Source: Candidatus Multivoradales bacterium
Lineage (GTDB): Bacteria; Acidobacteriota; Thermoanaerobaculia; Multivoradales; J023
Length of the DNA: 64,000 nucleotides
Assembly: GCA_965248925.1 (NCBI GenBank)
Contig: CBDFLE010000005.1
Span: 896,001-960,000, forward strand
Reading direction: 5' to 3'
Shown piece after piece: positions 22,752-63,426 of this stretch. How positions within the stretch are numbered: position 1 is the stretch's first letter; each line of letters opens with the position of its first letter. Under the pieces are notes generated by a model. The model saw nothing but the letters and a program-made list of their open reading frames with translations. It did no database searches and was not told where the DNA came from. Position numbers and translations under genes: made by a program.

Positions 22752-22991
22752 GGCCTGCAAGTCTCCCCGGCAGCGACTCGCCATTCAGGAGCCTCCCCCT
22801 GTCGTCTTTGGGGGGGTATGGGAAGACAATTCCGACACATTCGCCCCACGAGCGGAATGTGTCAATGAAAGTGAGACACTTTCTTCTGGGAATTAGTACG
22901 GAATCGGTAGTGGCTCCGGCACCATCTTGAAATGGGCTTCAGAGAACGGATTGTCGTTGCTCGTGTAGGGCCGGTTCAGCGACCGTGTCAT

Positions 22992-23675
22992 TCAGAGATC
23001 GGCCAGCAGTAGAGCCACCGGCTTGGATGCCATGCTCGAACCGCGGTCCGAGTGCAAGGTAAGTCGATCTCGCTCAACACCTTGCTTGTCAACACCTTGC
23101 TTGTCAACACCTTGCTTGTCAACACCTTGCTTCTCAACACTGTCGGCAATCAACCGCTTCGCGAGTCCTCCGGACTCGCGGCAGGCGAGCATCCAGCCGG
23201 CGATGTAGCGGCTGAAGACCTCCAGAATTACGTAAAGGTAGTAGTAGGTCCACTTCACCGGGCCATTGAGCTTGGTGATGTCCCACGACCACACCTCGTT
23301 CGGCCCTGTGGCCAGCAGTTCGGGCTTGGTGTAGTTGGGATGACGCCGCTGACGGCGTCGCTCGCGCAGCTCGCCCTCAGACTCCAGGACCCGGTACATG
23401 GTGCGCACCGAGCAGATATGGCGCTGATCCTCGTCCAGCAGCGCCGCCCAGACTTGACGCGGCGAGCGGTCGACGAAGCGCTCCGAGTGCAACACATCGA
23501 GGACCTCCTGGCGTTCAGCGGGCGTCAATGCCAGCGGCGGTCGAGGCCGCGTCGATAGCTGCGGCCCTGCGCCCTGCTGCCGACGGCGGCGATAGAAAGT
23601 GGCTCTGGGGACCGCCAAGGCGGCGCAGGCTGCCTGCACCCCCACCATCTCGGCCAGCGGCGCCACAGCGCTCAT
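22992..23675 (-). pseudogene. Truncated IS3 transposase OrfB
   Basis: Matches 42808..43929 but stops after LLADL and carries a GVDKQ expansion. Confidence 0.88.
23074..23140. repeat. 15-bp tandem repeat (TCAACACCTTGCTTG), about 4.5 copies
   Basis: Directly visible; encodes (GVDKQ)3 extra relative to the intact IS3 copies. Confidence 0.95.
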
Positions 23676-23700
23676 GACTGGCTCTCACTCGGCTCGATCC

Positions 23701-24135
23701 CTAGCAGCCGGGAAAGTTTTTTTGGACATCGATGATCGTCTCGGCTTTGTACAGCTGATGCTTGAGCCGGGCAATCTCACGCTCAAGCTCCGCGACGCGG
23801 CGGGCCTCAGCAGCGACCGGCCGACGCTTGCGACCGCGCTTCTTCGACAAACCGGCCAGAGCACTGGCATCGCGTTGCTGGCGCCAATTCGATAGTAGAG
23901 ATGAATACAGACCCTCCCGGCGGAGCAGGGCGCCAATCTCGCCGGGCTTGCTACAGGCGTCGGCAGCCTGGACGATGCTCAGCTTGTACGACGCGCTGTA
24001 CCGACGCCGCTTCGCCTTCTCAGTTACCTCTGGATCTCGTCGGTCAGCGCTCATATCTCGCAGCTCGTGGCTTGGACTCGCCCTGGTGATTGCTCTCCAC
24101 GCCCTCACTAATTTCTCGGTACGGCAGTGTCTCAC
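23701..24135 (-). pseudogene. IS3 OrfA with frameshifted C-terminus
   Basis: Matches 42347..42811 but ends NFPGC because one A is lost. Confidence 0.8.
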
Positions 24136-24153
24136 TTACATTGGCACAGAGGG

Positions 24154-24377: not shown

Positions 24378-24749
24378 ATGCCGAGGAAAAAGCAGCCACC
24401 CACCGACTTTGGACATCGCCTGCCTGCCATCCGCAAGGCCAAAGGCTTCACCCAGGTTCAGCTTGCAGATGTGACCGGGACCACCCAGCGGGCGATCTCC
24501 TACTACGAAACGGAGGCCGGCTATCCACCGATGCCGGCGGTCGTCGCTCTGGCCCAGGCCCTCGGTGTTTCTGCCGATGAGTTGATGGGTCTCAAACAGC
24601 CCCAGGTCGACCTGCTCCAGGACGATCCCGAAACCCGCAGGATGTGGAAGAAGTTTCAGCAGGTCCGGACTCTGCCCGAGAGGGACCAACGAGCCGTAAT
24701 TCGGCTCGTCAATTCGCTTGCCTCAGCGAGTCAGCCCGCCACGGAGTAG
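24378..24749 (+). CDS. XRE-family HTH regulator (allele A)
   Basis: IRKAKGFTQVQLADVTGTTQRAISYYE...LAQALGVSADELMG. Confidence 0.9.
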   Translation: MPRKKQPPTDFGHRLPAIRKAKGFTQVQLADVTGTTQRAISYYETEAGYPPMPAVVALAQALGVSADELMGLKQPQVDLLQDDPETRRMWKKFQQVRTLPERDQRAVIRLVNSLASASQPATE

Positions 24750-25075: not shown

Positions 25076-26161
25076 CTATTGGCCCGACAGGCCGGTTGTT
25101 GAGTCAAAGATTCGCGGTGTCTGGTTCAACCCGCCGTTTTTGATGACTCCATTGCGGCTCTGGACCCAAACCTGAGTGCCGTCGTCCAGTGTTCGTGCAG
25201 ACCAGACATTACCGAACTTGTCCGTTCCAAGGGCCGTTGAAGCGTCATCTGCGACCCCTTGCAGGAGCTTTCGGTTTGCTGGCGTGTCAGCGAGGTGACC
25301 AGGGGCGTCTCGGAAAATGTGCTTGATCTGACCAGGCTTACTGGGAAACCTCGCTGCCCCCCTTGGTACTCCGCGCGATCCCCGCTGAAAGACCTTACCA
25401 AGTCGAGCAAAGACAGCAGACAGCTTTGACCCAACATTAGGAAGTGCTTTTCGAGTAGCAGCGACAACAAGAGTCGTCTCGTCGACCGGCGAGAGAAGAC
25501 TGACGGCAAACAGCGCCCCCATACCTCGAGCATTGATGTTCTCGATGTATTGCTCCTGGGTGATCTCGCCCCGCATCAAGCGCTGTATATCTTGTTCGAG
25601 AGCCATCGCCGCACGGCTTTCTCGCCCATTGGAGTCGATCTCGTTGATCGGGTTGTTGGCCCCGTAGGTATAGCGGTTCCAGCTTCCAGGCGCGCTGACC
25701 TTGGCGGACCTCGCCGGATCGACACTCAAGAACCGCCCTAGCACTGGGCTACAATACCGAGCGTGCATGTAGTCCAGCTCGCTCCTCGCCCCGGTCCCGG
25801 TCTTGTCCCGCTCATGGCCAGTGAATTTCAGCTGAATCTCGTCAGCCTCCGCGCTGGTCGCCTCTTGACCAAAGGGAAAGTAGTTGTGCAACGCCACCTG
25901 CTGTCCGCCTCGGGTGAAGGGGACAGCCCGACGCGGTTTCCAGCTTGAGAGCTGGTAACCCTCTATGCCTGTTCTACTTAAGCCTCGCTCGGCCCTACTG
26001 CCGGCGGGGTCTTGGTGCTCGAAGGTCCAGAGGCGAGTTTCGGCGTAGCTCGACTCGGAGATCGGCGCGATCGCTGTTGCCGGCATCGTCACCGCCAGGA
26101 GCGCGACGACCAGCCCGAGCGCCATCGTCCAAGTGCTTCTTCCTTTAGCTGCCTGCCTCAT
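25076..26161 (-). CDS. Mini-Rhs toxin A: constant leader + Rhs-associated core + variable C-terminal domain
   Basis: Core YFPFG...KFTGHERD...LDYMHARY...GRFLSVDP...NRYTYGANNPINEIDSNG, then a unique tip (HIFRDAPGHLADTPANR...). Confidence 0.85.
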   Translation of the reverse strand: MRQAAKGRSTWTMALGLVVALLAVTMPATAIAPISESSYAETRLWTFEHQDPAGSRAERGLSRTGIEGYQLSSWKPRRAVPFTRGGQQVALHNYFPFGQEATSAEADEIQLKFTGHERDKTGTGARSELDYMHARYCSPVLGRFLSVDPARSAKVSAPGSWNRYTYGANNPINEIDSNGRESRAAMALEQDIQRLMRGEITQEQYIENINARGMGALFAVSLLSPVDETTLVVAATRKALPNVGSKLSAVFARLGKVFQRGSRGVPRGAARFPSKPGQIKHIFRDAPGHLADTPANRKLLQGVADDASTALGTDKFGNVWSARTLDDGTQVWVQSRNGVIKNGGLNQTPRIFDSTTGLSGQ

Positions 26162-26618
26162 GCCGGGCCATTCTACGCCGCGGGTGGCGCTCGAAGACAG
26201 CGGCTAAAGGAGGAAGGGTGGTTGGTGCGGAGGCGGGATGCGGTTTTCTTAGGCCGCTTTCTTCGGGCAGTGGGTGTTTTCTTAGGTCGTTTTCGTCGGG
26301 CTGGTCGTCGGAGCGAGCGCGGGTCTTTCCGGCAGTTTGGTGCCGGCGGCGCAGCCGCCAAACCAATCTGCACGTTGGGGGCGTGGTGGCGGCGGGGCCG
26401 GAGCCGAGCACGGCGACCGCAGGGCGCCGCGCGCAGGGTACGGAGGCCACGACGCAGGGCGGGTCTTGGGAGGAGGATGGGGAGCCCCCTTGAGGGGGCG
26501 GACGGGGCCGGGCCGAGCCGTCGCAGTGCTGGCTGGTGGATCTCGGCAAGGAGGCCCGGAGCGGGGCGTGGTTCCGAAGCCGCTGACCATCGCAGGCTCG
26601 CGGAGTGCTCACCCCAAG

Positions 26619-26644
26619 TTTCCATAATGCACGCGTTATGGAAA
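26619..26644. other. dif/cer-like palindrome TTTCCATAA-tgcacgcg-TTATGGAAA, a candidate tyrosine recombinase site (also 34473..34498, 43971..43996, 53295..53320, 63884..63909)
   Basis: Perfect 9-bp inverted arms with an 8-bp spacer and a CATAA/TTATG core as in Xer sites; identical in all five copies. Confidence 0.7.
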
Positions 26645-27052
26645 GGCCGTAGGCCCGGAGCCGGGGCGTGTGAGGGCCAGGTCGGATAGGGCGCGCACTA
26701 TCGGACAGCGACCCATGCAAGCCGCGTGACACCTGGGAGGTCCGAGGAGGGGCCCAGGTGGCGCGCGGCTTGCGGAGCGGCTGGCCCGTGCCCGGAGGGA
26801 GCGCAGCGACCGGAGGGACACACGCCCCGGCGGAGCTTGGGGCGAGCTTTCGGAGACTCTTTTCTTGGACTACCTGAAGCCTCGCTCCGGGCCGGTGATC
26901 GGAGGGCTCAGGTGGTGGATCGCAGATGCTCGGGCCGGGGCGGGCAGGGGTGACAAAACAAACACCGCCGAGGGCTGCGTGGCCCGCGAGCGGAGGACGG
27001 CGCAGCCGGCCGCAGCGCGGGACCCGCAGACCCGGACCGCTTCGGGCGGGGG

Positions 27053-28126
27053 TCAGTCCTCCGCCTCGGTCTCGACTACATCGAGTAAGTCCTCGGCGGT
27101 CACTTCATCGCTGCCGTCTTCTTCTGTCGGCGGTGCCACCCGCCGCCCTAGCTTCGCGCCCGGATGGGTTGCCGAGTGGATCGACTTCAGTTTGCGGATC
27201 GATACCTGAGTGTAAATCTGCGTCGTCTCCAGCTTGGCATGGCCGAGCATCTGCTGAATGAAGCGGATATCCGCACCACCTTCGAGCATCAGCGTCGCCA
27301 TCGTGTGGCGGAAGAGATGGCAAGCGCCCGACTTGCCGAGATCGGCGGCGAGCACGTAGCCGCGCACCAGCTGACTCATTCGCGACGGAGCAAACGGCGT
27401 CCCCTGGTTGGTGAGAAAGAGCGTCCCGCCGTCCGGCTCGACCATCAGCGACGGCCGTACCTCAGTGACGTAGCGATCGATCCAGGCCAGCGCCCGCTCG
27501 CCGATCGGGATCATCCAGTCTTTCCGCCCCTTGCCCTGGCGCACCATCACCGTTCCGCGTTCGATGTCGAGATCGTAACGGCCGAGGCCGATCAGCTCAG
27601 CCCGGCGCATGCCGGTCGAGTAGAAGACTTCAAGGATCGTCCGGTCGCGCATCCCGAGTGGGTCGGCGGTGTCGGGCTGGTTGAGCACCTGGTCGGCTTC
27701 CGAGGCGGTCAGCACCGCCGCCGGCAACCGGTGCTCCAGCTTCGGCAGCTCCAGCTCCGAGGCCGGGTTGTAGAGCAGGTGGTTGGCCCGAGTCGCCCAC
27801 TTGAAGAAAGCCCGCACCGGCACCAGCCGCGAGTGCTGCGCCCGGAAAGACAGCGGCCGCCCGTCCCCAGGCTTGCGGTAGTGGTAGAGCCACCTGGCGT
27901 AGCGCTCCAGGATCGGCTTGGTCACTTCCGACGGCCGCGACACCCCACGCTCTTCACACCATGCGATGAGAAACGAGAGGTATAGATGCCGGTTCTCAAC
28001 GGTTCGTGGAGAGTAGTTCTTGATCGCCATCCACTCCAGGTACTGACCCGCCATCACCGCGAAGCCCCGAGGGTCGGTTGGATTGCCCGGCAAGAGGCGG
28101 ATCTTGCGCTCGCCACGGCGCGGCAT
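27053..28126 (-). CDS. Tyrosine recombinase (XerC/D-like), unit B1
   Basis: Catalytic set TGMRRAEL, GKG, HLFRH, LGHA, TQIYT; ATG overlaps the primase stop (TGATG). Confidence 0.95.
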   Translation of the reverse strand: MPRRGERKIRLLPGNPTDPRGFAVMAGQYLEWMAIKNYSPRTVENRHLYLSFLIAWCEERGVSRPSEVTKPILERYARWLYHYRKPGDGRPLSFRAQHSRLVPVRAFFKWATRANHLLYNPASELELPKLEHRLPAAVLTASEADQVLNQPDTADPLGMRDRTILEVFYSTGMRRAELIGLGRYDLDIERGTVMVRQGKGRKDWMIPIGERALAWIDRYVTEVRPSLMVEPDGGTLFLTNQGTPFAPSRMSQLVRGYVLAADLGKSGACHLFRHTMATLMLEGGADIRFIQQMLGHAKLETTQIYTQVSIRKLKSIHSATHPGAKLGRRVAPPTEEDGSDEVTAEDLLDVVETEAED

Positions 28127-31100
28127 CAGGGCCCCTCGACCGCCGCCGAGCCGCCGGTACGACGCCCAGATTTACGACATGACGGGCCGTTTTCTCGCAC
28201 CCCCTTATATGCGTTTTTTGCCGAAACCCCACGATTTCCGGCCGAAGTCGTTGATTCTGCTTGGGAAACTGCACCCCGACCACCCCCCGACACCCCCCCG
28301 ACTTGGGGCCGACTTGGCCCCGACTTCTCAGCTTCAGACCCCGACTTCTTTTCGTCGTACCTGAGTGTTTCGACCTCGATCAGCCCCGGCAGTCGCGGCC
28401 GCTCCGGTTCGTCGCTGGCCACGTAAACCAGCTCGTAGACAAAGCTCTGCCCCCGCCCGCCCTGATGCACCAGCAGATACTCAAACTCCTCAAGACGGCG
28501 TAGGTGCAGCTTCAGCTGCGTATTGCCCCAGCCGGTGTGCTCGCGCACCGCCCGCCGGCTGAAACGGTAGTCCGGCCGATCCATCGCCAGCGCCTCACAG
28601 GCTTCGCTGACCATCTCGTCGATCAGCCCCAGCAGGCGCCGCGTCTGCGGCGGCAGCTCATCGAGCGAGCGCCCCAAGACTTCGTGCGCCAGGCGGTTGG
28701 CTGTCTCGATGTCTGTGGCCACCACTTCGACGTACTCCACCTCTCGCCCGTCGACCACCGCCAGCTTCACCTCTCGCTGGTATTGATGCAAAAGAGCAAT
28801 CACGTCGATCAGCGTCAGGTACTTCTCGTGGTCCCGGCGGGTGCGGATTTGCGTATCGAGAAAGGTAAGTTCCGGAGCAAAGGGATTGACCACCGCCAGC
28901 GGCCGCAGCAGCCGCTGCGCGTTCTGGTGCAGCGCCATCACCCCGTCGCGCCGGGTGCGCGAGAGTAGCCCCTCCAGCGTCCGCCGCTGCCGCTGCAGCC
29001 GGTGAATCGCCCGCGTCTGCTCTCGCGCCTCGTCCACCGAGAGCACCAAGCAGCGATTCAAAAGCTCTTCATCGATGTCGATTGCCGTGGTCGTCAAGAA
29101 GATCATCACCGGCCCTTCGACGTGGTACTCGTGCGTCACCAGCTTGCCCGTTGAAGCATCCTTGCCGGTCGAGGCAATCGTCAGCTCGCCCTCCGACTGA
29201 AGCAGCTTCAAGGCGTAGCTAGCCCGCTCGGCCCCCTCCTCCTCGACGATCGCCAGGATCTTGTGCTGCAGATCCGTTTCGCCCATGTAGAACAGCGATT
29301 GCCCGGTCATCGCCGAGTACTTCACTTGCTGCTCACCTGGCATCAGCGACAGCACCGCCTCCATCAGCGCCGACTTGCCGGCCGCCGAGCTCGACTGCAC
29401 CACCACCGCCAAAGGCCGATCCAGAAAGCGCGAGGTGGCCGCCATATAGCCCATGAGCTTGTTGGTTTCCTCGCCCACCACCCCGCAGCGCTCGAAGTCC
29501 GCGAGGATGCGCACCAAGAGATCTGGTGAGCGCAGCAGCTCAAGCGCCGCTTCCTTCTCTCCCTCTGACAGCTCCACCGCCGTCGACTGCGGCTCGAGTG
29601 CTGAGCGGATCTGCTCGTCCTGCAGCTCCTCGAGCTTCAGCAGCACCTTGCCCAGATCCTTCTTGACCACCTTCTCATCGACCCCCAGTTCAGCGGCTGC
29701 CGCCCGCTGAAACACCGCGCGCGGCCGCGCAGCGTAGAGATCGAAGGTATCGACGTGGAAGGCGTCGCCGCGCGACGCCAAAACATTGACCTTGAGCACG
29801 TCGTAAGCCAGGTTCTTCGGCAGACCGCGAATCCTGTAGCGACGATCGCCCAGCGACAGCACCACCTCCTGATCGCGCACTTCCGCCGGCATATCTGGCG
29901 GAGGCGGGGCGGGCAATGGGGAGGCTTCGGCCGGGGCGACCGGCGCCAATACCGCCTCTGCGGCGGTATTAGGCCGTGTCGATTGCTCTGCCGGCGGTGC
30001 CAATGAGCCCACTATGGGCTCGTTGCCCAGTTTCACGTCGGGCGCCTTGCCTTTCCCGAGCCACTGTGCTTTGCGGATCACCACCCCCAGCGACTTCGCG
30101 GCTGGCGTCACCTTCAGCGCATATTCGTTGGCGTCCATGCCGCGCGGAAAGTGAATGCGATAGGCGTCGATCCCGGCACCCACCAGCTTCTCGGCCAGCT
30201 TCCCGGCGGCCTTCTCGCCGGCATCGTCCCGGTCGTAGGCGATCAGCACCCGCTCGACTCCGTGGCCACCGAAGGCTGCCAGCATCTCCGCGGTGAAACC
30301 CTGGATGCCGTAGGCGCTGGTGACGTTGCGGTAGCCCGCGCACCAGAAGGTCAGAGCGTCGATCAGCGACTCGCAAAGGATGATCTCGGTCGAGGCCACC
30401 AGAGCTTCCGCATTGAAGATCCCTCGATGCGGACCCGGCAGATAGAGATGCAAGGGTGTCCCCTTGCGAAGATTCAGTGTGATCTTTCGGCCGTAGATCT
30501 CCACCACCTGGCCTGTTGAATCGAAGACCGGAAAGACGATCGAGCCATTGAAGTGCTCATGACCCGACTTGCGCAGCACGCCGAGCTTCTGCAATCGACC
30601 CCGCATCTCCTTACCCGCCTTCAGCTGCTTCGATGGCAGTCGATAGCCCAGCGTCCGGTTGGCGAAGCCAAGCCTGAAATGCTCGATCATCTCCGGGTGC
30701 TTCAGCCCTCTGCTCTCCAGATAAGCCAGCGCCTCCGGGCTCTCCTTCAAAGCCTCGTGGTAGTAGCCGACGACCTGACCGAGTAGCTCCGCGTCCTCTG
30801 CTTCCGCCACCACCGGCGAAGGCAGGGCCGGCGCCGAAGGCAACGCCTCTGCGACCGCCTCCGCCGGCAGATCCGAGCGCAGCAGCTCGACCGCGTGGCG
30901 AAACGAAACCCCGCGATCTCGCATCACCCAATCGATCACCGACCCGCCCGCCTGGCAGGCGCCCAGGCAATGCCACAGATTCTTCTTCGGCGAGATCACC
31001 AGCGACGGCTCGCGGTCGTCGTGAAACGGGCAGAGCCCCAGCAGGTCCGCCCCGTGGCGTTTCAGTTTCACCCCACGGGCCAGGGCCAGGCGCTCCACCG

Positions 31101-31149
31101 ATACTTCTCGCTTTAGTCGCTCTACCTCGGCTTCTGGAATCCTGCTCAC
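28126..31149 (-). CDS. DnaG-like primase (CHC2 Zn finger + TOPRIM) fused to a P-loop NTPase/helicase-like domain, unit B1
   Basis: CPFHDD...WHCLGAC; CESLIDAL...YDRDDAG; SSSAAGKS (Walker A-like), LAIVEEE (Walker B-like), EELLNR. Start reassigned to GTG 31149 (GTGA overlap). Confidence 0.9.
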   Translation of the reverse strand: MSRIPEAEVERLKREVSVERLALARGVKLKRHGADLLGLCPFHDDREPSLVISPKKNLWHCLGACQAGGSVIDWVMRDRGVSFRHAVELLRSDLPAEAVAEALPSAPALPSPVVAEAEDAELLGQVVGYYHEALKESPEALAYLESRGLKHPEMIEHFRLGFANRTLGYRLPSKQLKAGKEMRGRLQKLGVLRKSGHEHFNGSIVFPVFDSTGQVVEIYGRKITLNLRKGTPLHLYLPGPHRGIFNAEALVASTEIILCESLIDALTFWCAGYRNVTSAYGIQGFTAEMLAAFGGHGVERVLIAYDRDDAGEKAAGKLAEKLVGAGIDAYRIHFPRGMDANEYALKVTPAAKSLGVVIRKAQWLGKGKAPDVKLGNEPIVGSLAPPAEQSTRPNTAAEAVLAPVAPAEASPLPAPPPPDMPAEVRDQEVVLSLGDRRYRIRGLPKNLAYDVLKVNVLASRGDAFHVDTFDLYAARPRAVFQRAAAAELGVDEKVVKKDLGKVLLKLEELQDEQIRSALEPQSTAVELSEGEKEAALELLRSPDLLVRILADFERCGVVGEETNKLMGYMAATSRFLDRPLAVVVQSSSAAGKSALMEAVLSLMPGEQQVKYSAMTGQSLFYMGETDLQHKILAIVEEEGAERASYALKLLQSEGELTIASTGKDASTGKLVTHEYHVEGPVMIFLTTTAIDIDEELLNRCLVLSVDEAREQTRAIHRLQRQRRTLEGLLSRTRRDGVMALHQNAQRLLRPLAVVNPFAPELTFLDTQIRTRRDHEKYLTLIDVIALLHQYQREVKLAVVDGREVEYVEVVATDIETANRLAHEVLGRSLDELPPQTRRLLGLIDEMVSEACEALAMDRPDYRFSRRAVREHTGWGNTQLKLHLRRLEEFEYLLVHQGGRGQSFVYELVYVASDEPERPRLPGLIEVETLRYDEKKSGSEAEKSGPSRPQVGGVSGGGRGAVSQAESTTSAGNRGVSAKNAYKGVRENGPSCRKSGRRTGGSAAVEGP

Positions 31150-31370
31150 TGTGCCGCCCCCGACTCCACCGGAGTAAGCACCAAACGATCCTGCTCGACC
31201 TCCACCCGCAGCCTCTCCCCGCAGCGAAACCCCGCCGCTTCTAGCCAAGCACCCCGCATCCGCACAAACGGCACAAGCCGCACCGAGCACGGGCCGTTGA
31301 CGTAGTGCGGCGCACGGGGCTCGTGCAGGGTAGAGATCGTCAGATATCGCTCAGCTCTCGGCTCAGACAC
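31146..31370 (-). CDS. SymE-like (AbrB-fold) small protein 2, allele B
   Basis: VPFVRMRGAWLEAAGFRCGERLRVEVEQDRLVL. Confidence 0.85.
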   Translation of the reverse strand: MSEPRAERYLTISTLHEPRAPHYVNGPCSVRLVPFVRMRGAWLEAAGFRCGERLRVEVEQDRLVLTPVESGAAQ

Positions 31371-31659
31371 AGGCCACTCCCGCCAGGCGACCCGCCGAGA
31401 CCTCCTCGATCCGGCCGATCTGATCCGCCGGCACCCACACCACCGGCTGCATTTCCCTCTCCTCCTCGCCCTCTTCCACCCGCGTCACCACCAAACGCCC
31501 GTCACCCACGACGTCCACCCGCACCTGGGCTCCAGGATAGAAGCCGGCGTCGCGCATCCACAGCCCCGCCAGCTGCAGCAGCGGTAGCTGCGCGGACTTG
31601 GGGAAGGCGTGCCAACCGTGGCGGTACAGGGCGGAGATGGTTAGCTTGTGCTCGGTCAT
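31363..31659 (-). CDS. SymE-like small protein 1, allele B
   Basis: LPLLQLAGLWMRDAGFYPGAQVRVDV; GGAGG ribosome-binding site. Confidence 0.8.
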   Translation of the reverse strand: MTEHKLTISALYRHGWHAFPKSAQLPLLQLAGLWMRDAGFYPGAQVRVDVVGDGRLVVTRVEEGEEEREMQPVVWVPADQIGRIEEVSAGRLAGVACV

Positions 31660-31828
31660 CGGTCTGCCTCCAAATTTCTTCAGTTAACTCAGATGCAACT
31701 CATCTGTGCTCTACAGTACCAATCGGTTGCATTGGTGTCAAGCCTGCAATGTCTTGACGCATACCTTCGGGTTGCCTAGAATTAACTCAGGACGGAAAAA
31801 GGCGTACAAGAAAGGACTGGAAGGTTCT
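31660..31828. promoter_or_regulatory. Divergent symE/xre control region with operator-like inverted repeats
   Basis: AT-richer segment containing CAGATG-caact-CATCTG (31690..31706) and ACCAAT-cggttgc-ATTGGT (31718..31736). Confidence 0.55.
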
Positions 31829-32200
31829 ATGAGCCAAGAAAGCGGCACGATCAAGACACGGTTCGGCAAGCGAGTTCTTGAGCTACGCAAGACTCGCAGC
31901 TGGAAGCAAGACGAGCTTGGCAAAAAGCTCGGCACTTCGGGCGTCGTCATCGGGCGCTACGAGCGAGGCGAGGTGATGCCGTCGATCAAGGTGGCTCAGA
32001 AGATGGCCGAAGTCTTTGGTGTGACGCTCGACTATTTGGTGGGTGAGCAGGAGGTTCCCAATCTGCTCACCCAAAGCGAAATGGTCGAACGGTGGATGAC
32101 TCTCGACGCTTTGGCGACGAGCGACCGGGACCGTATCCTCTACGTCGTCGACTCGCTCATTAGGGAAGCCAAGACCCGCCAGGCTTTCGGCGCCTCTTGA
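31829..32200 (+). CDS. XRE-family HTH regulator (allele B)
   Basis: ELRKTRSWKQDELGKKLGTSGVVIGRYERGEVMPS; start at MSQES. Confidence 0.9.
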   Translation: MSQESGTIKTRFGKRVLELRKTRSWKQDELGKKLGTSGVVIGRYERGEVMPSIKVAQKMAEVFGVTLDYLVGEQEVPNLLTQSEMVERWMTLDALATSDRDRILYVVDSLIREAKTRQAFGAS

Positions 32201-32499
32201 TCCAATATAGACGGAAACCCGGCTCTCACCGGGCTCGATTAATACAGCTCGCTGATTTCAGTTGGCTTGCGGCGAAACGCCTTCTGGCACCTCCGCAGCA
32301 GGCCGATGGACTCATCCGAGACGCACGTACCCGGCAGTCCTACGCCGCTACTTGAGCCCAGATGCACGAAAGCCCGGCATCAGCCGGACTTTCTGCGAAA
32401 CGGTTGGCACCTGGCCGCTCAGTGAGTCGAAGCTTCGTAAACCCAAGCCTTCTTGCTTCGGCTTTGAGAGCCATCATCGGCCTCAGCCCAGGTAGAACC

Positions 32500-32937
32500 T
32501 CAAGGCAACTCAGCAGCCTGAGCAGACTCTGATGAAGATCGAACAAAGAGCTGGATATACGACCCTACGCTTCCTGAATCCTCATCGAGGGTATTCGGAT
32601 CGAACTCGACCCCTGATCTGACGAGCATCTCTTCGAGGTCTTCGAGCAGATGCGAATGAGCCATGTACAGATCTACAGAAAGATCTAGGTGCCCCTTGAG
32701 TTCCTCAAACCTCATATTTGGGGAAAGCTTGTTCTCTGGAATACCTAGCTCGTGGGCTACAAACCTTCTTCCGTCTAGGATCTTGCTAGAGCTACTTGCC
32801 ACGAGCCTAGGTGGAAAGTGAGAGAGAAAGTCATTCTTGTCAATCGCTGGCAGTCGTTTGATACGAGAGCGCTTCAATCCCCTGCTGGCAATCCAGTAGA
32901 GCGCCATTGCCAAAAGAATCCACCACCACAAATCCAT
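32500..32937 (-). CDS. Putative immunity protein B with N-terminal transmembrane helix
   Basis: Directly downstream of toxin B; GGAGG RBS; MDLWWWILLAMALYWIA; lower GC. Confidence 0.75.
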   Translation of the reverse strand: MDLWWWILLAMALYWIASRGLKRSRIKRLPAIDKNDFLSHFPPRLVASSSSKILDGRRFVAHELGIPENKLSPNMRFEELKGHLDLSVDLYMAHSHLLEDLEEMLVRSGVEFDPNTLDEDSGSVGSYIQLFVRSSSESAQAAELP

Positions 32938-32959
32938 TTTTATAGCCTCCCGGTTTCAG

Positions 32960-34015
32960 CTAGAAAGCGCAGTTTGCCAGAGTTCCGATGTTGTAGTAGC
33001 CAACGAACACGGTAGCTGGCGTGGCAACAAACGACACGGCCCGGCCCCCGGCGCGGACAGCGCCCGAGGCCGATCTTGCTACCGCGGAGTTTGGGAAAGC
33101 CCTCTTAAGGGGAGATCCGACAAGTGCTCTTCCTGGGTTAGTCAAGGGGTCTGTTGCTTTCGGGACCCTGAAAGGCGGCAGTAAACGCTTCGGAAAAGCT
33201 GAACCGAAAACTACCGCACCGGCATTGATCCTATTCTTCCGCACGCACCGTGAATAGTCTACGCCGTCAATAGGCAAGCTAGCCAGAGCGCGATCATGTA
33301 ACGCAAGCGGTGCCGGGTCAGGGCGACTGGATACTTCAATGAAAGCCAAGAGGGTAGGGAAAACATCTACCGAGGATTCTCCATCGCCACCCTCGGCGCT
33401 GTCGACTACGTCAATCCGCTCGCCACAGATCACAGTCTGCGAACCGTCTTCGCTGGTTTGAGTAACGCACTCCGGGTCAAGACCATCCGGGTCGACCAGG
33501 TTTAGAGGGTTGTTCACTACATAAGAGTAGCGATTCCAAGATTGTGGGATTGGCGCAGTTCCGTTTACTGGATCAATACTCAAGAACCTCCCCACCACCG
33601 GACTGCAATGCCGAGCGTGCATGTAGTCCAGCTCGCTACGGCTGCCTGTGCCGGTCTTATCCCTCTCATGGCCGGTAAACTTCAGCCCAATCTCATCAGC
33701 ACCAGCGTTAGTCGCCTCTTGACCGAACGGGTAATAGTTGTGCAACGCCACCTGCTGACCACCTCGGGTGAAGGGGACAGCCCGACGCGGTTTCCAGCTT
33801 GAGAGCTGGTAACCCTCTATGCCTGTTCTACTTAAGCCTCGCTCGGCCCTACTGCCGGCGGGGTCTTGGTGCTCGAAGGTCCAGAGGCGAGTTTCGGCGT
33901 AGCTCGACTCGGAGATCGGCGCGATCGCTGTTGCCGGCATCGTCACCGCCAGGAGCGCGACGACCAGCCCGAGCGCCATCGTCCAAGTGCTTCTTCCTTT
34001 AGCTGCCTGCCTCAT
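32960..34015 (-). CDS. Mini-Rhs toxin B
   Basis: Same leader; Rhs core ending NNPLNLVDPDG; unique tip with a hydrophobic C-terminus. Confidence 0.85.
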   Translation of the reverse strand: MRQAAKGRSTWTMALGLVVALLAVTMPATAIAPISESSYAETRLWTFEHQDPAGSRAERGLSRTGIEGYQLSSWKPRRAVPFTRGGQQVALHNYYPFGQEATNAGADEIGLKFTGHERDKTGTGSRSELDYMHARHCSPVVGRFLSIDPVNGTAPIPQSWNRYSYVVNNPLNLVDPDGLDPECVTQTSEDGSQTVICGERIDVVDSAEGGDGESSVDVFPTLLAFIEVSSRPDPAPLALHDRALASLPIDGVDYSRCVRKNRINAGAVVFGSAFPKRLLPPFRVPKATDPLTNPGRALVGSPLKRAFPNSAVARSASGAVRAGGRAVSFVATPATVFVGYYNIGTLANCAF

Positions 34016-34906
34016 GCCGGGCCATTCTACGCCGCGGGTGGCGCTCGAAGACAGCGGCTAAAGGAGGAAGGGTGGTTGGTGCGGAGGCGGGATGCGGTTT
34101 TCTTAGGCCGCTTTCTTCGGGCAGTGGGTGTTTTCTTAGGTCGTTTTCGTCGGGCTGGTCGTCGGAGCGAGCGCGGGTCTTTCCGGCAGTTTGGTGCCGG
34201 CGGCGCAGCCGCCAAACCAATCTGCACGTTGGGGGCGTGGTGGCGGCGGGGCCGGAGCCGAGCACGGCGACCGCAGGGCGCCGCGCGCAGGGTACGGAGG
34301 CCACGACGCAGGGCGGGTCTTGGGAGGAGGATGGGGAGCCCCCTTGAGGGGGCGGACGGGGCCGGGCCGAGCCGTCGCAGTGCTGGCTGGTGGATCTCGG
34401 CAAGGAGGCCCGGAGCGGGGCGTGGTTCCGAAGCCGCTGACCATCGCAGGCTCGCGGAGTGCTCACCCCAAGTTTCCATAATGCACGCGTTATGGAAAGG
34501 CCGTAGGCCCGGAGCCGGGGCGTGTGAGGGCCAGGTCGGATAGGGCGCGCACTATCGGACAGCGACCCATGCAAGCCGCGTGACACCTGGGAGGTCCGAG
34601 GAGGGGCCCAGGTGGCGCGCGGCTTGCGGAGCGGCTGGCCCGTGCCCGGAGGGAGCGCAGCGACCGGAGGGACACACGCCCCGGCGGAGCTTGGGGCGAG
34701 CTTTCGGAGACTCTTTTCTTGGACTACCTGAAGCCTCGCTCCGGGCCGGTGATCGGAGGGCTCAGGTGGTGGATCGCAGATGCTCGGGCCGGGGCGGGCA
34801 GGGGTGACAAAACAAACACCGCCGAGGGCTGCGTGGCCCGCGAGCGGAGGACGGCGCAGCCGGCCGCAGCGCGGGACCCGCAGACCCGGACCGCTTCGGG
34901 CGGGGG

Positions 34907-35980
34907 TCAGTCCTCCGCCTCGGTCTCGACTACATCGAGTAAGTCCTCGGCGGTCACTTCATCGCTGCCGTCTTCTTCTGTCGGCGGTGCCACCCGCCGC
35001 CCTAGCTTCGCGCCCGGATGGGTTGCCGAGTGGATCGACTTCAGTTTGCGGATCGATACCTGAGTGTAAATCTGCGTCGTCTCCAGCTTGGCATGGCCGA
35101 GCATCTGCTGAATGAAGCGGATATCCGCACCACCTTCGAGCATCAGCGTCGCCATCGTGTGGCGGAAGAGATGGCAAGCGCCCGACTTGCCGAGATCGGC
35201 GGCGAGCACGTAGCCGCGCACCAGCTGACTCATTCGCGACGGAGCAAACGGCGTCCCCTGGTTGGTGAGAAAGAGCGTCCCGCCGTCCGGCTCGACCATC
35301 AGCGACGGCCGTACCTCAGTGACGTAGCGATCGATCCAGGCCAGCGCCCGCTCGCCGATCGGGATCATCCAGTCTTTCCGCCCCTTGCCCTGGCGCACCA
35401 TCACCGTTCCGCGTTCGATGTCGAGATCGTAACGGCCGAGGCCGATCAGCTCAGCCCGGCGCATGCCGGTCGAGTAGAAGACTTCAAGGATCGTCCGGTC
35501 GCGCATCCCGAGTGGGTCGGCGGTGTCGGGCTGGTTGAGCACCTGGTCGGCTTCCGAGGCGGTCAGCACCGCCGCCGGCAACCGGTGCTCCAGCTTCGGC
35601 AGCTCCAGCTCCGAGGCCGGGTTGTAGAGCAGGTGGTTGGCCCGAGTCGCCCACTTGAAGAAAGCCCGCACCGGCACCAGCCGCGAGTGCTGCGCCCGGA
35701 AAGACAGCGGCCGCCCGTCCCCAGGCTTGCGGTAGTGGTAGAGCCACCTGGCGTAGCGCTCCAGGATCGGCTTGGTCACTTCCGACGGCCGCGACACCCC
35801 ACGCTCTTCACACCATGCGATGAGAAACGAGAGGTATAGATGCCGGTTCTCAACGGTTCGTGGAGAGTAGTTCTTGATCGCCATCCACTCCAGGTACTGA
35901 CCCGCCATCACCGCGAAGCCCCGAGGGTCGGTTGGATTGCCCGGCAAGAGGCGGATCTTGCGCTCGCCACGGCGCGGCAT
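34907..35980 (-). CDS. Tyrosine recombinase, unit B2
   Basis: Protein identical to 27053..28126. Confidence 0.95.
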   Translation of the reverse strand: MPRRGERKIRLLPGNPTDPRGFAVMAGQYLEWMAIKNYSPRTVENRHLYLSFLIAWCEERGVSRPSEVTKPILERYARWLYHYRKPGDGRPLSFRAQHSRLVPVRAFFKWATRANHLLYNPASELELPKLEHRLPAAVLTASEADQVLNQPDTADPLGMRDRTILEVFYSTGMRRAELIGLGRYDLDIERGTVMVRQGKGRKDWMIPIGERALAWIDRYVTEVRPSLMVEPDGGTLFLTNQGTPFAPSRMSQLVRGYVLAADLGKSGACHLFRHTMATLMLEGGADIRFIQQMLGHAKLETTQIYTQVSIRKLKSIHSATHPGAKLGRRVAPPTEEDGSDEVTAEDLLDVVETEAED

Positions 35981-38900: not shown

Positions 38901-39003
38901 CCGCCCCGTGGCGTTTCAGTTTCACCCCACGGGCCAGGGCCAGGCGCTCCACCGATACTTCTCGCTTTAGTCGCTCTACCTCGGCTTCTGGAATCCTGCT
39001 CAC
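35980..39003 (-). CDS. Primase/P-loop fusion, unit B2
   Basis: Protein identical to unit B1. Confidence 0.9.
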   Translation of the reverse strand: MSRIPEAEVERLKREVSVERLALARGVKLKRHGADLLGLCPFHDDREPSLVISPKKNLWHCLGACQAGGSVIDWVMRDRGVSFRHAVELLRSDLPAEAVAEALPSAPALPSPVVAEAEDAELLGQVVGYYHEALKESPEALAYLESRGLKHPEMIEHFRLGFANRTLGYRLPSKQLKAGKEMRGRLQKLGVLRKSGHEHFNGSIVFPVFDSTGQVVEIYGRKITLNLRKGTPLHLYLPGPHRGIFNAEALVASTEIILCESLIDALTFWCAGYRNVTSAYGIQGFTAEMLAAFGGHGVERVLIAYDRDDAGEKAAGKLAEKLVGAGIDAYRIHFPRGMDANEYALKVTPAAKSLGVVIRKAQWLGKGKAPDVKLGNEPIVGSLAPPAEQSTRPNTAAEAVLAPVAPAEASPLPAPPPPDMPAEVRDQEVVLSLGDRRYRIRGLPKNLAYDVLKVNVLASRGDAFHVDTFDLYAARPRAVFQRAAAAELGVDEKVVKKDLGKVLLKLEELQDEQIRSALEPQSTAVELSEGEKEAALELLRSPDLLVRILADFERCGVVGEETNKLMGYMAATSRFLDRPLAVVVQSSSAAGKSALMEAVLSLMPGEQQVKYSAMTGQSLFYMGETDLQHKILAIVEEEGAERASYALKLLQSEGELTIASTGKDASTGKLVTHEYHVEGPVMIFLTTTAIDIDEELLNRCLVLSVDEAREQTRAIHRLQRQRRTLEGLLSRTRRDGVMALHQNAQRLLRPLAVVNPFAPELTFLDTQIRTRRDHEKYLTLIDVIALLHQYQREVKLAVVDGREVEYVEVVATDIETANRLAHEVLGRSLDELPPQTRRLLGLIDEMVSEACEALAMDRPDYRFSRRAVREHTGWGNTQLKLHLRRLEEFEYLLVHQGGRGQSFVYELVYVASDEPERPRLPGLIEVETLRYDEKKSGSEAEKSGPSRPQVGGVSGGGRGAVSQAESTTSAGNRGVSAKNAYKGVRENGPSCRKSGRRTGGSAAVEGP

Positions 39004-40791: not shown

Positions 40792-40813
40792 TTTTATAGC
40801 CTCCCGGTTTCAG

Positions 40814-41869
40814 CTAGAAAGCGCAGTTTGCCAGAGTTCCGATGTTGTAGTAGCCAACGAACACGGTAGCTGGCGTGGCAACAAACGACACGGCCCGGCC
40901 CCCGGCGCGGACAGCGCCCGAGGCCGATCTTGCTACCGCGGAGTTTGGGAAAGCCCTCTTAAGGGGAGATCCGACAAGTGCTCTTCCTGGGTTAGTCAAG
41001 GGGTCTGTTGCTTTCGGGACCCTGAAAGGCGGCAGTAAACGCTTCGGAAAAGCTGAACCGAAAACTACCGCACCGGCATTGATCCTATTCTTCCGCACGC
41101 ACCGTGAATAGTCTACGCCGTCAATAGGCAAGCTAGCCAGAGCGCGATCATGTAACGCAAGCGGTGCCGGGTCAGGGCGACTGGATACTTCAATGAAAGC
41201 CAAGAGGGTAGGGAAAACATCTACCGAGGATTCTCCATCGCCACCCTCGGCGCTGTCGACTACGTCAATCCGCTCGCCACAGATCACAGTCTGCGAACCG
41301 TCTTCGCTGGTTTGAGTAACGCACTCCGGGTCAAGACCATCCGGGTCGACCAGGTTTAGAGGGTTGTTCACTACATAAGAGTAGCGATTCCAAGATTGTG
41401 GGATTGGCGCAGTTCCGTTTACTGGATCAATACTCAAGAACCTCCCCACCACCGGACTGCAATGCCGAGCGTGCATGTAGTCCAGCTCGCTACGGCTGCC
41501 TGTGCCGGTCTTATCCCTCTCATGGCCGGTAAACTTCAGCCCAATCTCATCAGCACCAGCGTTAGTCGCCTCTTGACCGAACGGGTAATAGTTGTGCAAC
41601 GCCACCTGCTGACCACCTCGGGTGAAGGGGACAGCCCGACGCGGTTTCCAGCTTGAGAGCTGGTAACCCTCTATGCCTGTTCTACTTAAGCCTCGCTCGG
41701 CCCTACTGCCGGCGGGGTCTTGGTGCTCGAAGGTCCAGAGGCGAGTTTCGGCGTAGCTCGACTCGGAGATCGGCGCGATCGCTGTTGCCGGCATCGTCAC
41801 CGCCAGGAGCGCGACGACCAGCCCGAGCGCCATCGTCCAAGTGCTTCTTCCTTTAGCTGCCTGCCTCAT
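40814..41869 (-). CDS. Mini-Rhs toxin B (copy 2)
   Basis: Identical to 32960..34015. Confidence 0.85.
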   Translation of the reverse strand: MRQAAKGRSTWTMALGLVVALLAVTMPATAIAPISESSYAETRLWTFEHQDPAGSRAERGLSRTGIEGYQLSSWKPRRAVPFTRGGQQVALHNYYPFGQEATNAGADEIGLKFTGHERDKTGTGSRSELDYMHARHCSPVVGRFLSIDPVNGTAPIPQSWNRYSYVVNNPLNLVDPDGLDPECVTQTSEDGSQTVICGERIDVVDSAEGGDGESSVDVFPTLLAFIEVSSRPDPAPLALHDRALASLPIDGVDYSRCVRKNRINAGAVVFGSAFPKRLLPPFRVPKATDPLTNPGRALVGSPLKRAFPNSAVARSASGAVRAGGRAVSFVATPATVFVGYYNIGTLANCAF

Positions 41870-50137: not shown

Positions 50138-51193
50138 TCACTGCTCCAGGAACTTGATTTTGCGGAGACCCTTTTCAATCCCGTGAACATCTACGGTCGG
50201 TGGCCCGCCACTCTTCGACGTCGCTCGGAACGTCACCGTCGCCCCATTAGGCCCACGCGCAGTGAAGATGCCCGGTCTGACTTCTGTCACCGGGTTCGAC
50301 CCCCTCAAGTTGTCGAATAGCTTGCGAGCGTCGCCCGCGTCCCCGGCAACTTCTCGAATGCCCTTGCTCTTGCCCGCGCGCCCAAGAGAAGTCAGTCCCC
50401 CCCTTGCGCCCGCTCTTGCTGCGCCAGCAGCAGCAGCTGATTTTTTCAGTTTCTTTGCATTTCTAACGGCTCCTACGAGTTTCACTCCCCTACCGGCAAC
50501 CTTCAAGAGTCCTAGACCTGTGGCACCGGCCACAGCCCCAGTGACGAAAGCCCCGGCTACGCCTGTTGTGAGCTCTTCTCCTGAAAGCGCGTTGCTCGCA
50601 ATTTGAATCCCAACATCTACGACTCCGCCAAGAAATGCAGTTACCAGAAAGCCAAGCCTTCCGTCAGGGTCTACCTGGTTGATTGGACTGTTGCTCACGT
50701 AAGAGAAGCGATTCCAACTCTGTGGTGAGGACCGGCTACCCAGAGATGGATCGACACTCAAGAACCGCCCCACCACCGGGCTGCAATGCCGAGCATGCAT
50801 ATAGTCCAGCTCGCTCCTCACCCCGGTCCCGGTCTTGTCTCGCTCGTGCCCGGTGAACTTCAGCACAACCTCATCTTGTGCGGCGCTGGTCGCCTCTTGA
50901 CCAAACGGGTAGTAGTTGTGCAACGCCACCTGCTGTCCGCCTCGGGTGAAGGGGACAGCCCGACGCGGTTTCCAGCTTGAGAGCTGGTAACCCTCTATGC
51001 CTGTTCTACTTAAGCCTCGCTCGGCCCTACTGCCGGCGGGGTCTTGGTGCTCGAAGGTCCAGAGGCGAGTTTCGGCGTAGCTCGACTCGGAGATCGGCGC
51101 GATCGCTGTTGCCGGCATCGTCACCGCCAGGAGCGCGACGACCAGCCCGAGCGCCATCGTCCAAGTGCTTCTTCCTTTAGCTGCCTGCCTCAT
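50138..51193 (-). CDS. Mini-Rhs toxin C
   Basis: Same leader; core ending NSPINQVDPDG; Gly/Ala hydrophobic linker, then a basic tip (VTFRATSKSGGPPTVDV...KIKF). Confidence 0.85.
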   Translation of the reverse strand: MRQAAKGRSTWTMALGLVVALLAVTMPATAIAPISESSYAETRLWTFEHQDPAGSRAERGLSRTGIEGYQLSSWKPRRAVPFTRGGQQVALHNYYPFGQEATSAAQDEVVLKFTGHERDKTGTGVRSELDYMHARHCSPVVGRFLSVDPSLGSRSSPQSWNRFSYVSNSPINQVDPDGRLGFLVTAFLGGVVDVGIQIASNALSGEELTTGVAGAFVTGAVAGATGLGLLKVAGRGVKLVGAVRNAKKLKKSAAAAGAARAGARGGLTSLGRAGKSKGIREVAGDAGDARKLFDNLRGSNPVTEVRPGIFTARGPNGATVTFRATSKSGGPPTVDVHGIEKGLRKIKFLEQ

Positions 51194-62370: not shown

Positions 62371-63426
62371 TCACTGCTCCAGGAACTTGATTTTGCGGAG
62401 ACCCTTTTCAATCCCGTGAACATCTACGGTCGGTGGCCCGCCACTCTTCGACGTCGCTCGGAACGTCACCGTCGCCCCATTAGGCCCACGCGCAGTGAAG
62501 ATGCCCGGTCTGACTTCTGTCACCGGGTTCGACCCCCTCAAGTTGTCGAATAGCTTGCGAGCGTCGCCCGCGTCCCCGGCAACTTCTCGAATGCCCTTGC
62601 TCTTGCCCGCGCGCCCAAGAGAAGTCAGTCCCCCCCTTGCGCCCGCTCTTGCTGCGCCAGCAGCAGCAGCTGATTTTTTCAGTTTCTTTGCATTTCTAAC
62701 GGCTCCTACGAGTTTCACTCCCCTACCGGCAACCTTCAAGAGTCCTAGACCTGTGGCACCGGCCACAGCCCCAGTGACGAAAGCCCCGGCTACGCCTGTT
62801 GTGAGCTCTTCTCCTGAAAGCGCGTTGCTCGCAATTTGAATCCCAACATCTACGACTCCGCCAAGAAATGCAGTTACCAGAAAGCCAAGCCTTCCGTCAG
62901 GGTCTACCTGGTTGATTGGACTGTTGCTCACGTAAGAGAAGCGATTCCAACTCTGTGGTGAGGACCGGCTACCCAGAGATGGATCGACACTCAAGAACCG
63001 CCCCACCACCGGGCTGCAATGCCGAGCATGCATATAGTCCAGCTCGCTCCTCACCCCGGTCCCGGTCTTGTCTCGCTCGTGCCCGGTGAACTTCAGCACA
63101 ACCTCATCTTGTGCGGCGCTGGTCGCCTCTTGACCAAACGGGTAGTAGTTGTGCAACGCCACCTGCTGTCCGCCTCGGGTGAAGGGGACAGCCCGACGCG
63201 GTTTCCAGCTTGAGAGCTGGTAACCCTCTATGCCTGTTCTACTTAAGCCTCGCTCGGCCCTACTGCCGGCGGGGTCTTGGTGCTCGAAGGTCCAGAGGCG
63301 AGTTTCGGCGTAGCTCGACTCGGAGATCGGCGCGATCGCTGTTGCCGGCATCGTCACCGCCAGGAGCGCGACGACCAGCCCGAGCGCCATCGTCCAAGTG
63401 CTTCTTCCTTTAGCTGCCTGCCTCAT
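62371..63426 (-). CDS. Mini-Rhs toxin C (copy 2)
   Basis: Identical to 50138..51193. Confidence 0.85.
   Translation of the reverse strand: MRQAAKGRSTWTMALGLVVALLAVTMPATAIAPISESSYAETRLWTFEHQDPAGSRAERGLSRTGIEGYQLSSWKPRRAVPFTRGGQQVALHNYYPFGQEATSAAQDEVVLKFTGHERDKTGTGVRSELDYMHARHCSPVVGRFLSVDPSLGSRSSPQSWNRFSYVSNSPINQVDPDGRLGFLVTAFLGGVVDVGIQIASNALSGEELTTGVAGAFVTGAVAGATGLGLLKVAGRGVKLVGAVRNAKKLKKSAAAAGAARAGARGGLTSLGRAGKSKGIREVAGDAGDARKLFDNLRGSNPVTEVRPGIFTARGPNGATVTFRATSKSGGPPTVDVHGIEKGLRKIKFLEQ

Follow-up and report, generated by a model that had tools for sequence, protein, structure and literature searches.

Insertion in a protein-coding gene with supply of a substitute end is known from e14 or phage 21 in icd, small primase-plus-integrase elements are known as P4-like or phage-inducible chromosomal island (PICI) satellites and tycheposons, and dif-type sites, which have an 11-6-11 layout, are used in Xer recombination, which some elements exploit. 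For Rhs toxins, the available text of two papers (Jackson et al. 2009, PMC2935791; Steele et al. 2017, PMC5727410) describes C-terminal displacement, in which displaced core-tip/immunity modules lie behind an rhs gene of full length, the conserved core is where new C-terminal tips come in, and a circle is postulated. The displacement model of Jackson et al. needs this circular intermediate to be stable, and the available text of that paper knows of no integrase accompanying Rhs; the corresponding part of Steele et al. mentions, for bee-gut bacteria, genes resembling integrases in the neighbourhood of Rhs loci, with their role left open, and in that of Zhang et al. 2012 (PMC3482391) polyimmunity loci are said to have XerC/D genes as neighbours. 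Here, a stretch of 64,000 nucleotides from a Candidatus Multivoradales bacterium (the window, to which all positions without a contig prefix refer) was analysed, which carries a tandem array of units, each composed in order of an Rhs core with toxin tip, a candidate immunity gene, a helix-turn-helix (HTH) regulator, a DnaG-type primase, an Xer-like recombinase, ~0.9 kb of non-coding DNA, and an 84-codon leader. A sequence-only reading of the window had placed a candidate attachment (att) site at the junction between leader and Rhs core, and this junction is quite probably the core attachment site of a 7.5–7.9 kb integrative element; the anatomy of the element, the common insertion position, the conserved dyad at the junction, and the short common core in relatives are direct observations.

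Compared with Rhs C-terminal displacement as given in the accessible parts of those papers (PMC2935791, PMC5727410), the displaced tip here is accompanied by genes for a recombinase, a primase, and a regulator and by a leader that provides a start codon and a signal peptide, and a short fixed core is found at the junction in relatives. A classical Rhs orphan array likewise consists of a full-length rhs gene followed by core-fragment/tip/immunity modules, but the displaced tips here have an ATG and a signal-peptide-like leader, with a recombinase 0.9 kb away. Such a classical, element-free orphan array is present in the same genome (C6:2444223–2456694), with seven Rhs-core ends in 12.5 kb, each after rhs-body sequence, and none after a leader. 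The dusA-specific integrative elements (PMC4482086, available text) share a tyrosine recombinase att site inside an open reading frame (ORF) and a substitute gene end that keeps the frame, but with dusA- and icd-type elements the gene regains an equivalent end and works as before, whereas here a new toxin end is supplied, with a new 5′ leader for the displaced end, and integration itself would alter the phenotype. As in Xer/dif systems, the recombinase is Xer-like (NF002331 above cut-off) and the site has an 11-6-11 layout, but a single recombinase of the element's own is involved and the targets are toxin genes, not the chromosomal dif site. Integrons also keep arrays of exchangeable units beside a tyrosine recombinase, in a cassette-like accumulation, but here each unit has a recombinase, primase, and regulator, the recombinase falls short of the integron-integrase model, and exchange is in frame within a gene. 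P4-like/PICI satellites and tycheposons share an integrase, a primase, a cI-like regulator, cargo, and tandem arrays at one site, but the target here is a toxin ORF, not a tRNA gene, and no capsid-redirecting or packaging families were found among the ORFs scanned (Pfam; PHROGs not searched; ~650 C-terminal residues of the primase and several small ORFs without assignment). Polyimmunity loci, in the available text of PMC3482391, have XerC/D-type recombinases beside arrays of polymorphic-toxin immunity genes, but these arrays contain immunity genes only, and no att site, primase, or in-frame fusion to a toxin is described for them. The tyrosine-recombinase integrative element as such is known, and what is new is the target class and the consequence, in that a toxin domain is replaced in frame and the displaced one receives a new head; no description of a primase-plus-recombinase integrative element with an in-frame att site in an rhs or polymorphic-toxin gene was found in the full-text literature (subscription journals lay outside the scope).

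Position and conservation of the junction

The 15-mer CCTCGGGTGAAGGGG occurs in exact form on the plus strand at 25908, 33762, 41616, 50940, and 63173 only (five matches with up to one mismatch, vs 0.03 expected from shuffles), and from 25908 rightwards the five window copies are 100% identical across the full alignment. This identity, reported for the five copies by the sequence-only reading, extends to 12/12 genome copies, whose alignment has 328 columns without a variable position on the leader side. Since the toxin ORFs are on the minus strand, the sequence described as lying rightwards of the junction is the 5′ leader, so that the reported position stands and the orientation is corrected. 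The last 600 columns of the 12-element alignment before the junction contain just three variable places, and farther from the junction the backbone has ~14 variable columns per 150 and a pairwise divergence of 0–6.6%.

On the toxin side, the very first column past the junction varies, positions 1, 4, and 10 being third codon positions; in window coordinates, the first variable positions left of the junction, 25907 and 25904, are third positions of Gly codons, and variation leftward of 25904 grows steadily denser. Translations agree with the protein differences noted earlier (NYF vs NYY; SAEADEIQ / NAGADEIG / SAAQDEVV). Because the first 190 bp on this side encode the conserved Rhs core, they are still 82–93% similar between types, and the junction, previously described as sharp, is therefore sharp on the leader side only. 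The real drop in similarity on the toxin side comes beyond a DPxG-type motif, and the C-terminal ~170–180 residues are wholly different among three types (copy c1; c2 = c3; c4 = c5). The reading frame, also said to be preserved, is open through the junction in 5/5 window copies.

The genome (7.98 Mb, 6 contigs) holds 39 Rhs-core ends of at least 150 bp, and the 293-bp leader is present in 12 copies at 100% identity and in two at ~83–86%. The 12 elements form four groups, with seven in tandem on C5 (the window covers the lower part of this array), three in tandem on C6, one on C6, and one on C4, and each group is headed by a full-length rhs body (C5:984644, C6:1342661, C6:3495919, and C4:78746). 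These bodies are open for 1176–1441 codons, begin with a signal peptide of their own that is unrelated to the leader's, and are 96–97% alike over 4.2–4.9 kb; their flanks are unrelated, and they are therefore four separate loci, not one duplicated segment. All four are joined at one codon position, I-T-R-G/G-Q-Q (...CAGATCACCCGAGG/NGGNCAGCAG, the slash marking the junction), and the only stretch common to the leader and the rhs body before the junction is TCACCCGAGG (10 bp). The exact 10-mer is present in 6/16 family-1 rhs sites, of which 3/6 are occupied, and variants in the other 10/16, of which 1/10 is occupied (small numbers); unoccupied rhs sites with the exact core thus exist in the genome.

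Relatives of the recombinase were collected from a species-representative genome collection, giving 226 confirmed relatives, of which 80 were kept (Acidobacteriota, Myxococcota, Planctomycetota, Verrucomicrobiota, Actinobacteria, and Gammaproteobacteria), and a search of 41 related genomes gave a second array in G016, another genus of the same family, with four tandem elements behind an rhs gene (recombinase 82%, primase 72–74% protein identity). The attL, inter-element, and attR junctions of G016 have only GTCCCAAGGGG (11 bp) in common, with rhs or leader sequence to the left of this core and three unrelated sequences to the right; the insertion lies in the toxin region, ~145 codons past the Rhs core, and the displaced end is just a few codons long. 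In the planctomycete isolate Allorhodopirellula solitaria CA85, the 13-mer TGCCCCAAACAGT is found in perfect form three times genome-wide, at 7101 bp spacing and with unrelated flanks; attL is inside an ORF open for at least 500 codons, and at attR a signal-peptide leader (MKAAKEKILFMLVIASALLVCAPAIA...) continues into a tip of 359 codons that has a PT-HINT domain. In Microbulbifer variabilis SaN7-12, a perfect 14-mer is found three times, 6950 bp apart and with unrelated flanks, and the core common to the junctions is 14–17 bp.

Tyrosine recombinases leave short shared cores such as these of 11–17 bp, which, with unrelated flanks in three genomes, are too short for homologous recombination and therefore indicate site-specific recombination. 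The window's genome alone is ambiguous: the leader-side core is 10 bp, but the toxin side adds ~190 bp of homologous Rhs core. Judged by sequence comparison, it is the relatives that settle the question in favour of site-specific recombination. Homologues break at the same site and not at scattered breakpoints, which favours an attachment site.

The junction (25907/25908) falls within an 11-6-11 dyad (25900–25927), GCTGTCCCCTT-CACCCG-AGGCGGACAGC, whose arms are complementary at 9/11 positions (8/11 in copies 2 and 3). The inter-element site of G016 is a perfect inverted repeat with 11/11 complementary positions around GTCCCA, GCTGTTCCCCT-GTCCCA-AGGGGAACAGC, and in the leader-end alignment L026 has CTATCCCCTT-GTCCCA-AGGGGGGTAG and L019 a similar site. 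In tandem pairs from three other-phylum lineages, the backbone/cargo boundary lies at sites of the same form, namely CTGTT-GCCCCA-AACAG in Allorhodopirellula, GTCCCGCTGTA-GCCGCA-AACAACGGGAC in MFD03044, and a weaker dyad in Microbulbifer. The arms differ by lineage yet stay complementary (CCCCTT/AAGGGG, CGCCTT/AAGGCG, CTGTA/AACAG). A scan of 78 loci within 1.9 kb downstream of the recombinase (9-bp arm, GYCSCA, and a second arm complementary at 7/9 positions or more) gave 26 sites in 24/78 loci on the gene's strand, vs 7 on the opposite strand and 3 in upstream stretches of the same length. A leader ORF is in frame through the dyad at 10/14 sites (open for ≥30 codons ahead of the site and ≥60 beyond it), with the open frame starting at the first base of the central hexamer; other frames qualify just twice, and two further sites run into the end of the locus. 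A hydrophobic signal-like segment is present in most of these leaders, also where their DNA cannot be aligned. Measured from the dyad, the reading frame of the window's lineage differs from that of G016 by one base, which suggests that the DNA site, rather than the peptide, is primarily constrained. The suggestion that the junction is the crossover point is supported by the element's own recombinase, the shared codon position, the covarying dyad, and the 11–17 bp cores.

In the Microbulbifer tandem elements (L122–L124; G043 C8:9501, 16451, and 23401), the core is outside any long ORF, so that not every member of the family targets a toxin gene in frame. The genome of the MFD03044 lineage (G042) was set aside as a further case of short junction cores, having two inter-element sites but no attL within 2 mismatches, and a candidate upstream match in an IstB-like gene.

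Alternative routes to the arrays

Homologous recombination only, in which the element would be a small replicon or island, RecA-dependent crossover into and out of rhs genes would take place anywhere in the ~190 bp common Rhs core, the junction would mark the end of the likeness between leader and rhs, and the recombinase would serve another purpose, e.g. multimer resolution, survives best among the alternatives and is nonetheless unlikely. A group of observations speaks for it and weighs against an attachment site. The 200-bp core beside the site is a mosaic with scattered breakpoints among the 16 copies compared, and homologous recombination or gene conversion therefore acts there too and could alone yield the same gross structure in the window's genome. 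At C6:1342661, attL (CACGCGCGG) retains the resident central sequence and differs from attR (CACCCGAGG), which makes the pair unfit for an exchange needing an identical central region; the mismatch would fit a homologous event, or a strand exchange at the toxin-side edge followed by replication, for which Xer-dependent phage integration is the analogy. The two degenerate leader copies (L001, C4:250001–270000; L002, C6:3619001–3639000), with 84–86% identity and an ORF broken by stop or frameshift, run into YD-repeat regions of a second rhs family, and the direct repeats that flank them (2.4 and 3.1 kb) extend over the toxin and the DNA downstream of it; one of their junctions has a similar short motif, TCGCCGAGG, the other is without it, and by sequence they look like homologous integrations. 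A homologous mechanism is also the one proposed for rhs tips in the available text of Jackson et al. 2009 (PMC2935791).

Further points against an attachment site concern the site itself and its use. In the scan, 54/78 related loci are without a site at the threshold, and the window dyad is imperfect, such dyads being expected ~14.5 times per 64 kb by chance; the count in the window, 39, is inflated by repeats and alone is not significant, and the weight of the dyad rests on conserved position and covariation, not on the window alone. The total invariance of the last 328 bp of the element (within 25908–26500 and the 11 other genome copies) also contrasts with the 0–6.6% divergence of the backbone; concerted evolution beside the att site or very strong constraint on arm, promoter, or origin sequences may lie behind it. 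No excisionase was recognised in the element, and no excised circle or restored empty site was seen at the single-element locus L004 in short Logan contigs/unitigs of one sample, where a single 'goes back' joint (12453 to 4108, 30-letter sides) lies away from the att sites. Against homologous recombination only, and deciding for site-specific integration, the junctions of G016, Allorhodopirellula, and Microbulbifer are common over just 11–17 bp with unrelated flanks on both sides, a covarying dyad lies exactly at the boundary across phyla, and a recombinase gene always adjoins the site.

Host-owned switching, in which the arrays would arise by tandem duplication and a domesticated recombinase would reshuffle stored tips locally without horizontal mobility, is improbable. 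Identical units frequently stand side by side, the leader does not vary within the genome, and transfer or packaging genes were not found in the element, as this explanation would have it, but the primase-recombinase module is present in many phyla and on plasmids, one 7542-bp element is found with 0 mismatches at two different rhs loci, and at least seven backbone variants coexist in the genome. Many of the kept relatives (L019, L025, L028, L030, L041, L059, L068, L077, and others) are moreover on 7–8 kb contigs of about one element, which would fit collapsed tandem repeats or free circles.

The sequence-only reading had put its weight on two hairpins and had considered a structured single-stranded DNA or RNA site, but the relevant dyad is another one (25900–25927). 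The palindrome at 25935–25960 with its 11-bp arms exists and folds at −9.4 kcal/mol (z −4.5, 0/200 shuffles as good), and the short TCGGG...CCCGA inverted repeat at the junction also exists, pairing the leader flank with the dyad centre, which is not recombinase-type symmetry. G016/L019 have a 7-bp stem with a 7-nt loop at the place of the palindrome, with three two-sided changes (CCAGCT/AGCTGG to CCCGTC/GACGGG); the pairs were read by eye, because the differing loop lengths put the automatic alignment out of register. As main evidence the palindrome does not hold, being kept in this one other lineage and lost in three other copies (L026 and both degenerate copies); an accessory protein site or a transcript structure is possible. 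An integron-like or single-strand system, in which hairpins folded in single-stranded DNA or RNA would be the structure recognised for cassette exchange, is most improbable, since for all the stability of the palindrome, the retention of its stem despite another loop length, and the foldability of the dyad itself, the recombinase is full-length Xer-like and falls short of the integron-integrase models (TIGR02249, 101 bits vs a cut-off of 265; NF011946, 70.6 vs 435), each unit, unlike promoterless cassettes, has its own recombinase and primase, the palindrome is lost in the copies just named, and the dyad folds no better than shuffles (z −1.7, 12/200).

Organisation of the elements and neighbouring features

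The coordinates of the features in the window are collected in Table 1. The repeat unit is 7854 bp in the self-comparison of the window and longer where an insertion sequence (IS) has inserted; IS3-family copies occupy the same position in elements 3 and 4, with an IS21-family copy in element 4, and the first array element carries a 2901-bp multi-copy insertion (C5:977238–980138). The Rhs-core portion carried by the element is the last ~95 codons, and residues 94–179 of the ORF cover all of TIGR03696 (Rhs-associated core) at 59–64 bits vs a cut-off of 32.5. The leader starts MRQAAKGRSTWTMALGLVVALLAV..., and its N-terminus resembles a Sec signal peptide. It was excluded as a shortened rhs N-terminus, the signal peptide of full-length Rhs being unrelated and the leader being confined to element copies.

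Table 1. Positions of the array features in the 64,000-nt window
Feature	Position	Strand	Remark
Element 1	25908..33761	-	7854 bp
Element 2	33762-41615		
Element 3	41616-50939		IS3 at 42329-43969
Element 4	50940-63172		IS3 at 51653-53293, IS21 at 53539-56438
Element 5	from 63173 onward		
Leader + core + toxin ORFs	25076-26161, 32960-34015, 40814-41869, 50138-51193, 62371-63426	-	
Leader, copy 1	25908..26161	-	84 codons, in frame into Rhs core
Leader, repeats	33762-34015, 41616-41869, 50940-51193, 63173-63426		
Invariant block	25908..26235		328 bp, 0 variable positions among 12 genome copies
Rhs-associated core + type-A C-terminal toxin domain	25076..25907	-	behind leader copy 1; toxin domain without assigned family
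Core att site, copy 1 (proposed)	25900..25927		arms 25900-25910 and 25917-25927, centre 25911-25916 (coding strand CACCCG)
Core att site, copy 2 (proposed)	33754..33781		inter-element junction; toxin-side arm 8/11
Core att site, copy 3 (proposed)	41608..41635		
Core att site, copy 4 (proposed)	50932..50959		
Core att site, copy 5 (proposed)	63165..63192		
Palindrome/hairpin in leader	25935..25960		11-bp arms, 1 mismatch, 4-nt loop
Two 26-nt direct repeats (GTTTTCTTAGG...)	26243..26301		80-140 bp upstream of leader start
Xer-like tyrosine recombinase, element 1	27053..28126	-	
Recombinase, further copies	34907-35980, 44412-45485, 56645-57718		
DnaG-type primase, element 1	28126..31290	-	1054 aa, zinc ribbon + Toprim
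Primase, further copies	35980-39144, 45485-48565, 57718-60798		
Type-specific HTH_3 (Cro/cI-like) regulator	31706..32200	+	divergent from primase gene
HTH_3 regulator, type II copies	49092-49481, 61325-61714		
Candidate immunity gene, toxin type B	32500..32937	-	23 bp past toxin stop
HTH_3 regulator of truncated oldest unit	24378..24749	+	IS3 remnant 22925-24153 replaced the rest

The recombinase (357 aa; Phage_integrase 3e-37; NF002331, 'XerC' subfamily, 428 bits vs a cut-off of 371) is intact in each unit at ~0.9 kb from the junction, and its GMRRAE, GKGRKD, HLFRH, and LGH...TTQIYTQ are what we take to be the catalytic motifs (RKHRH-Y). The primase protein has 1026–1054 aa across units, of which the first 390 residues are the DnaG-type part; the C-terminal ~650 residues (28126–29400) give a weak DUF5906/P-loop hint only (E 0.008), are conserved over full length in 74/80 relatives, and may be a helicase or initiator part. 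The HTH_3 regulator sits between primase and cargo in divergent orientation, and the regulators at 31706, 49092, and 24378 have 25–34% identity between element types, next to primase genes of 92–98% identity in DNA, a pattern that by sequence resembles that of type-specific repressors. The gene at 32500–32937 is a candidate immunity gene by its position, and neither the three toxin tips nor the candidate immunity proteins have a Pfam, NCBIfam, or PDB-sequence match.

The non-coding gap of 0.9 kb between recombinase and leader has four repeat features (26136–26216, 26243–26301, 26619–26644, and 26717–26773). The 26-nt direct repeats among them are by sequence candidate protein-binding (arm-type or operator) sites. 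The gap further has a perfect palindrome with 12-nt arms (TTTCCATAATGC..GCGTTATGGAAA), which is retained in the degenerate copies too, an inverted repeat with 21-nt arms, and a 17-nt inverted repeat that could pair the 5′ untranslated region with leader codons 4–9.

At the lower end of the array, an inverted IS3 remnant (22925–24153) truncates the oldest unit. The c1 tip was excluded as the original resident tip of the locus, since an element-type HTH gene and this IS3 remnant follow it, and c1 therefore belongs to the truncated older element. Beyond the array, 2498–22751 encodes glycosyltransferases, three sulfatase-family proteins, a methyltransferase, and a 1233-aa CARDB-containing protein, and is probably a surface-polysaccharide locus.

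Among the kept relatives, the primase is directly upstream of the recombinase in 74/80 loci, and 3 of the other 6 have too little upstream sequence. A narrow regular expression for the Rhs core motif found 7/80 loci and was replaced by profile scans; with these, an Rhs core was present in 19/58 of the longer same-strand ORFs downstream, which enter the profile at positions 1 to 56 of 76. A Pfam scan of 60 downstream ORFs gave one each of CdiA_C, PT-HINT, Cytotoxic, AHH, and RHS_repeat. The annotated gene order on one plasmid, from Janthinobacterium, is a giant FG-GAP-repeat protein, a small ORF, an antitoxin, an HTH gene, a toprim protein, 'XerC', small ORFs, and an Imm26 immunity protein.

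Proposed cycle and its meaning

In the mechanism we propose, the leader of a circular form of the element would run in frame across the site into the core and toxin that the element itself carries. Strand exchange by the recombinase would fall inside TCACCCGAGG (coding strand; plus strand 25908–25917) or at its toxin-side edge, and integration at I-T-R-G/G-Q-Q of a chromosomal rhs gene would link the incoming toxin tip to the large Rhs body, while placing the leader, and probably a promoter, before the displaced tip and its immunity gene. Successive integrations would build tandem arrays, and whenever two sites of an array, whichever they are, recombined, the Rhs body would receive another of the stored tips. 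Besides the circle and the exact exchange point, we infer expression and export of the leader fusions and a route of the element between cells.

By a modest degree, we incline to a wider view, in which the primase-recombinase elements would be the long-postulated episomal carriers of toxin tips. Such elements would be self-replicating and self-integrating, would occur in many phyla, and would dock in frame in polymorphic-toxin genes (Rhs, PT-HINT-bearing, and others), re-arming a delivery protein with a toxin of their own, while the displaced tips would be kept expressed behind a portable signal-peptide leader and the array would act as a recombinase-addressable toxin/immunity library.

The question of how polymorphic toxins gain and swap their C-terminal domains has stood open ever since C-terminal displacement became known. 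An element with tip, immunity gene, replication protein, recombinase, and in-frame att site supplies the intermediate of the 2009 model and makes that model testable, with att sites now narrowed to ~30 bp and two cultured isolates that carry arrays. Tandem orphan-toxin arrays would be explained, and the gain of a new tip in frame, with the old tip kept as a separate gene, would explain the end-swapping of toxin genes. Integration of a mobile element here rewires a protein, instead of just breaking a gene or making it whole again, and nature thereby offers a recombination system for in-frame domain swapping.

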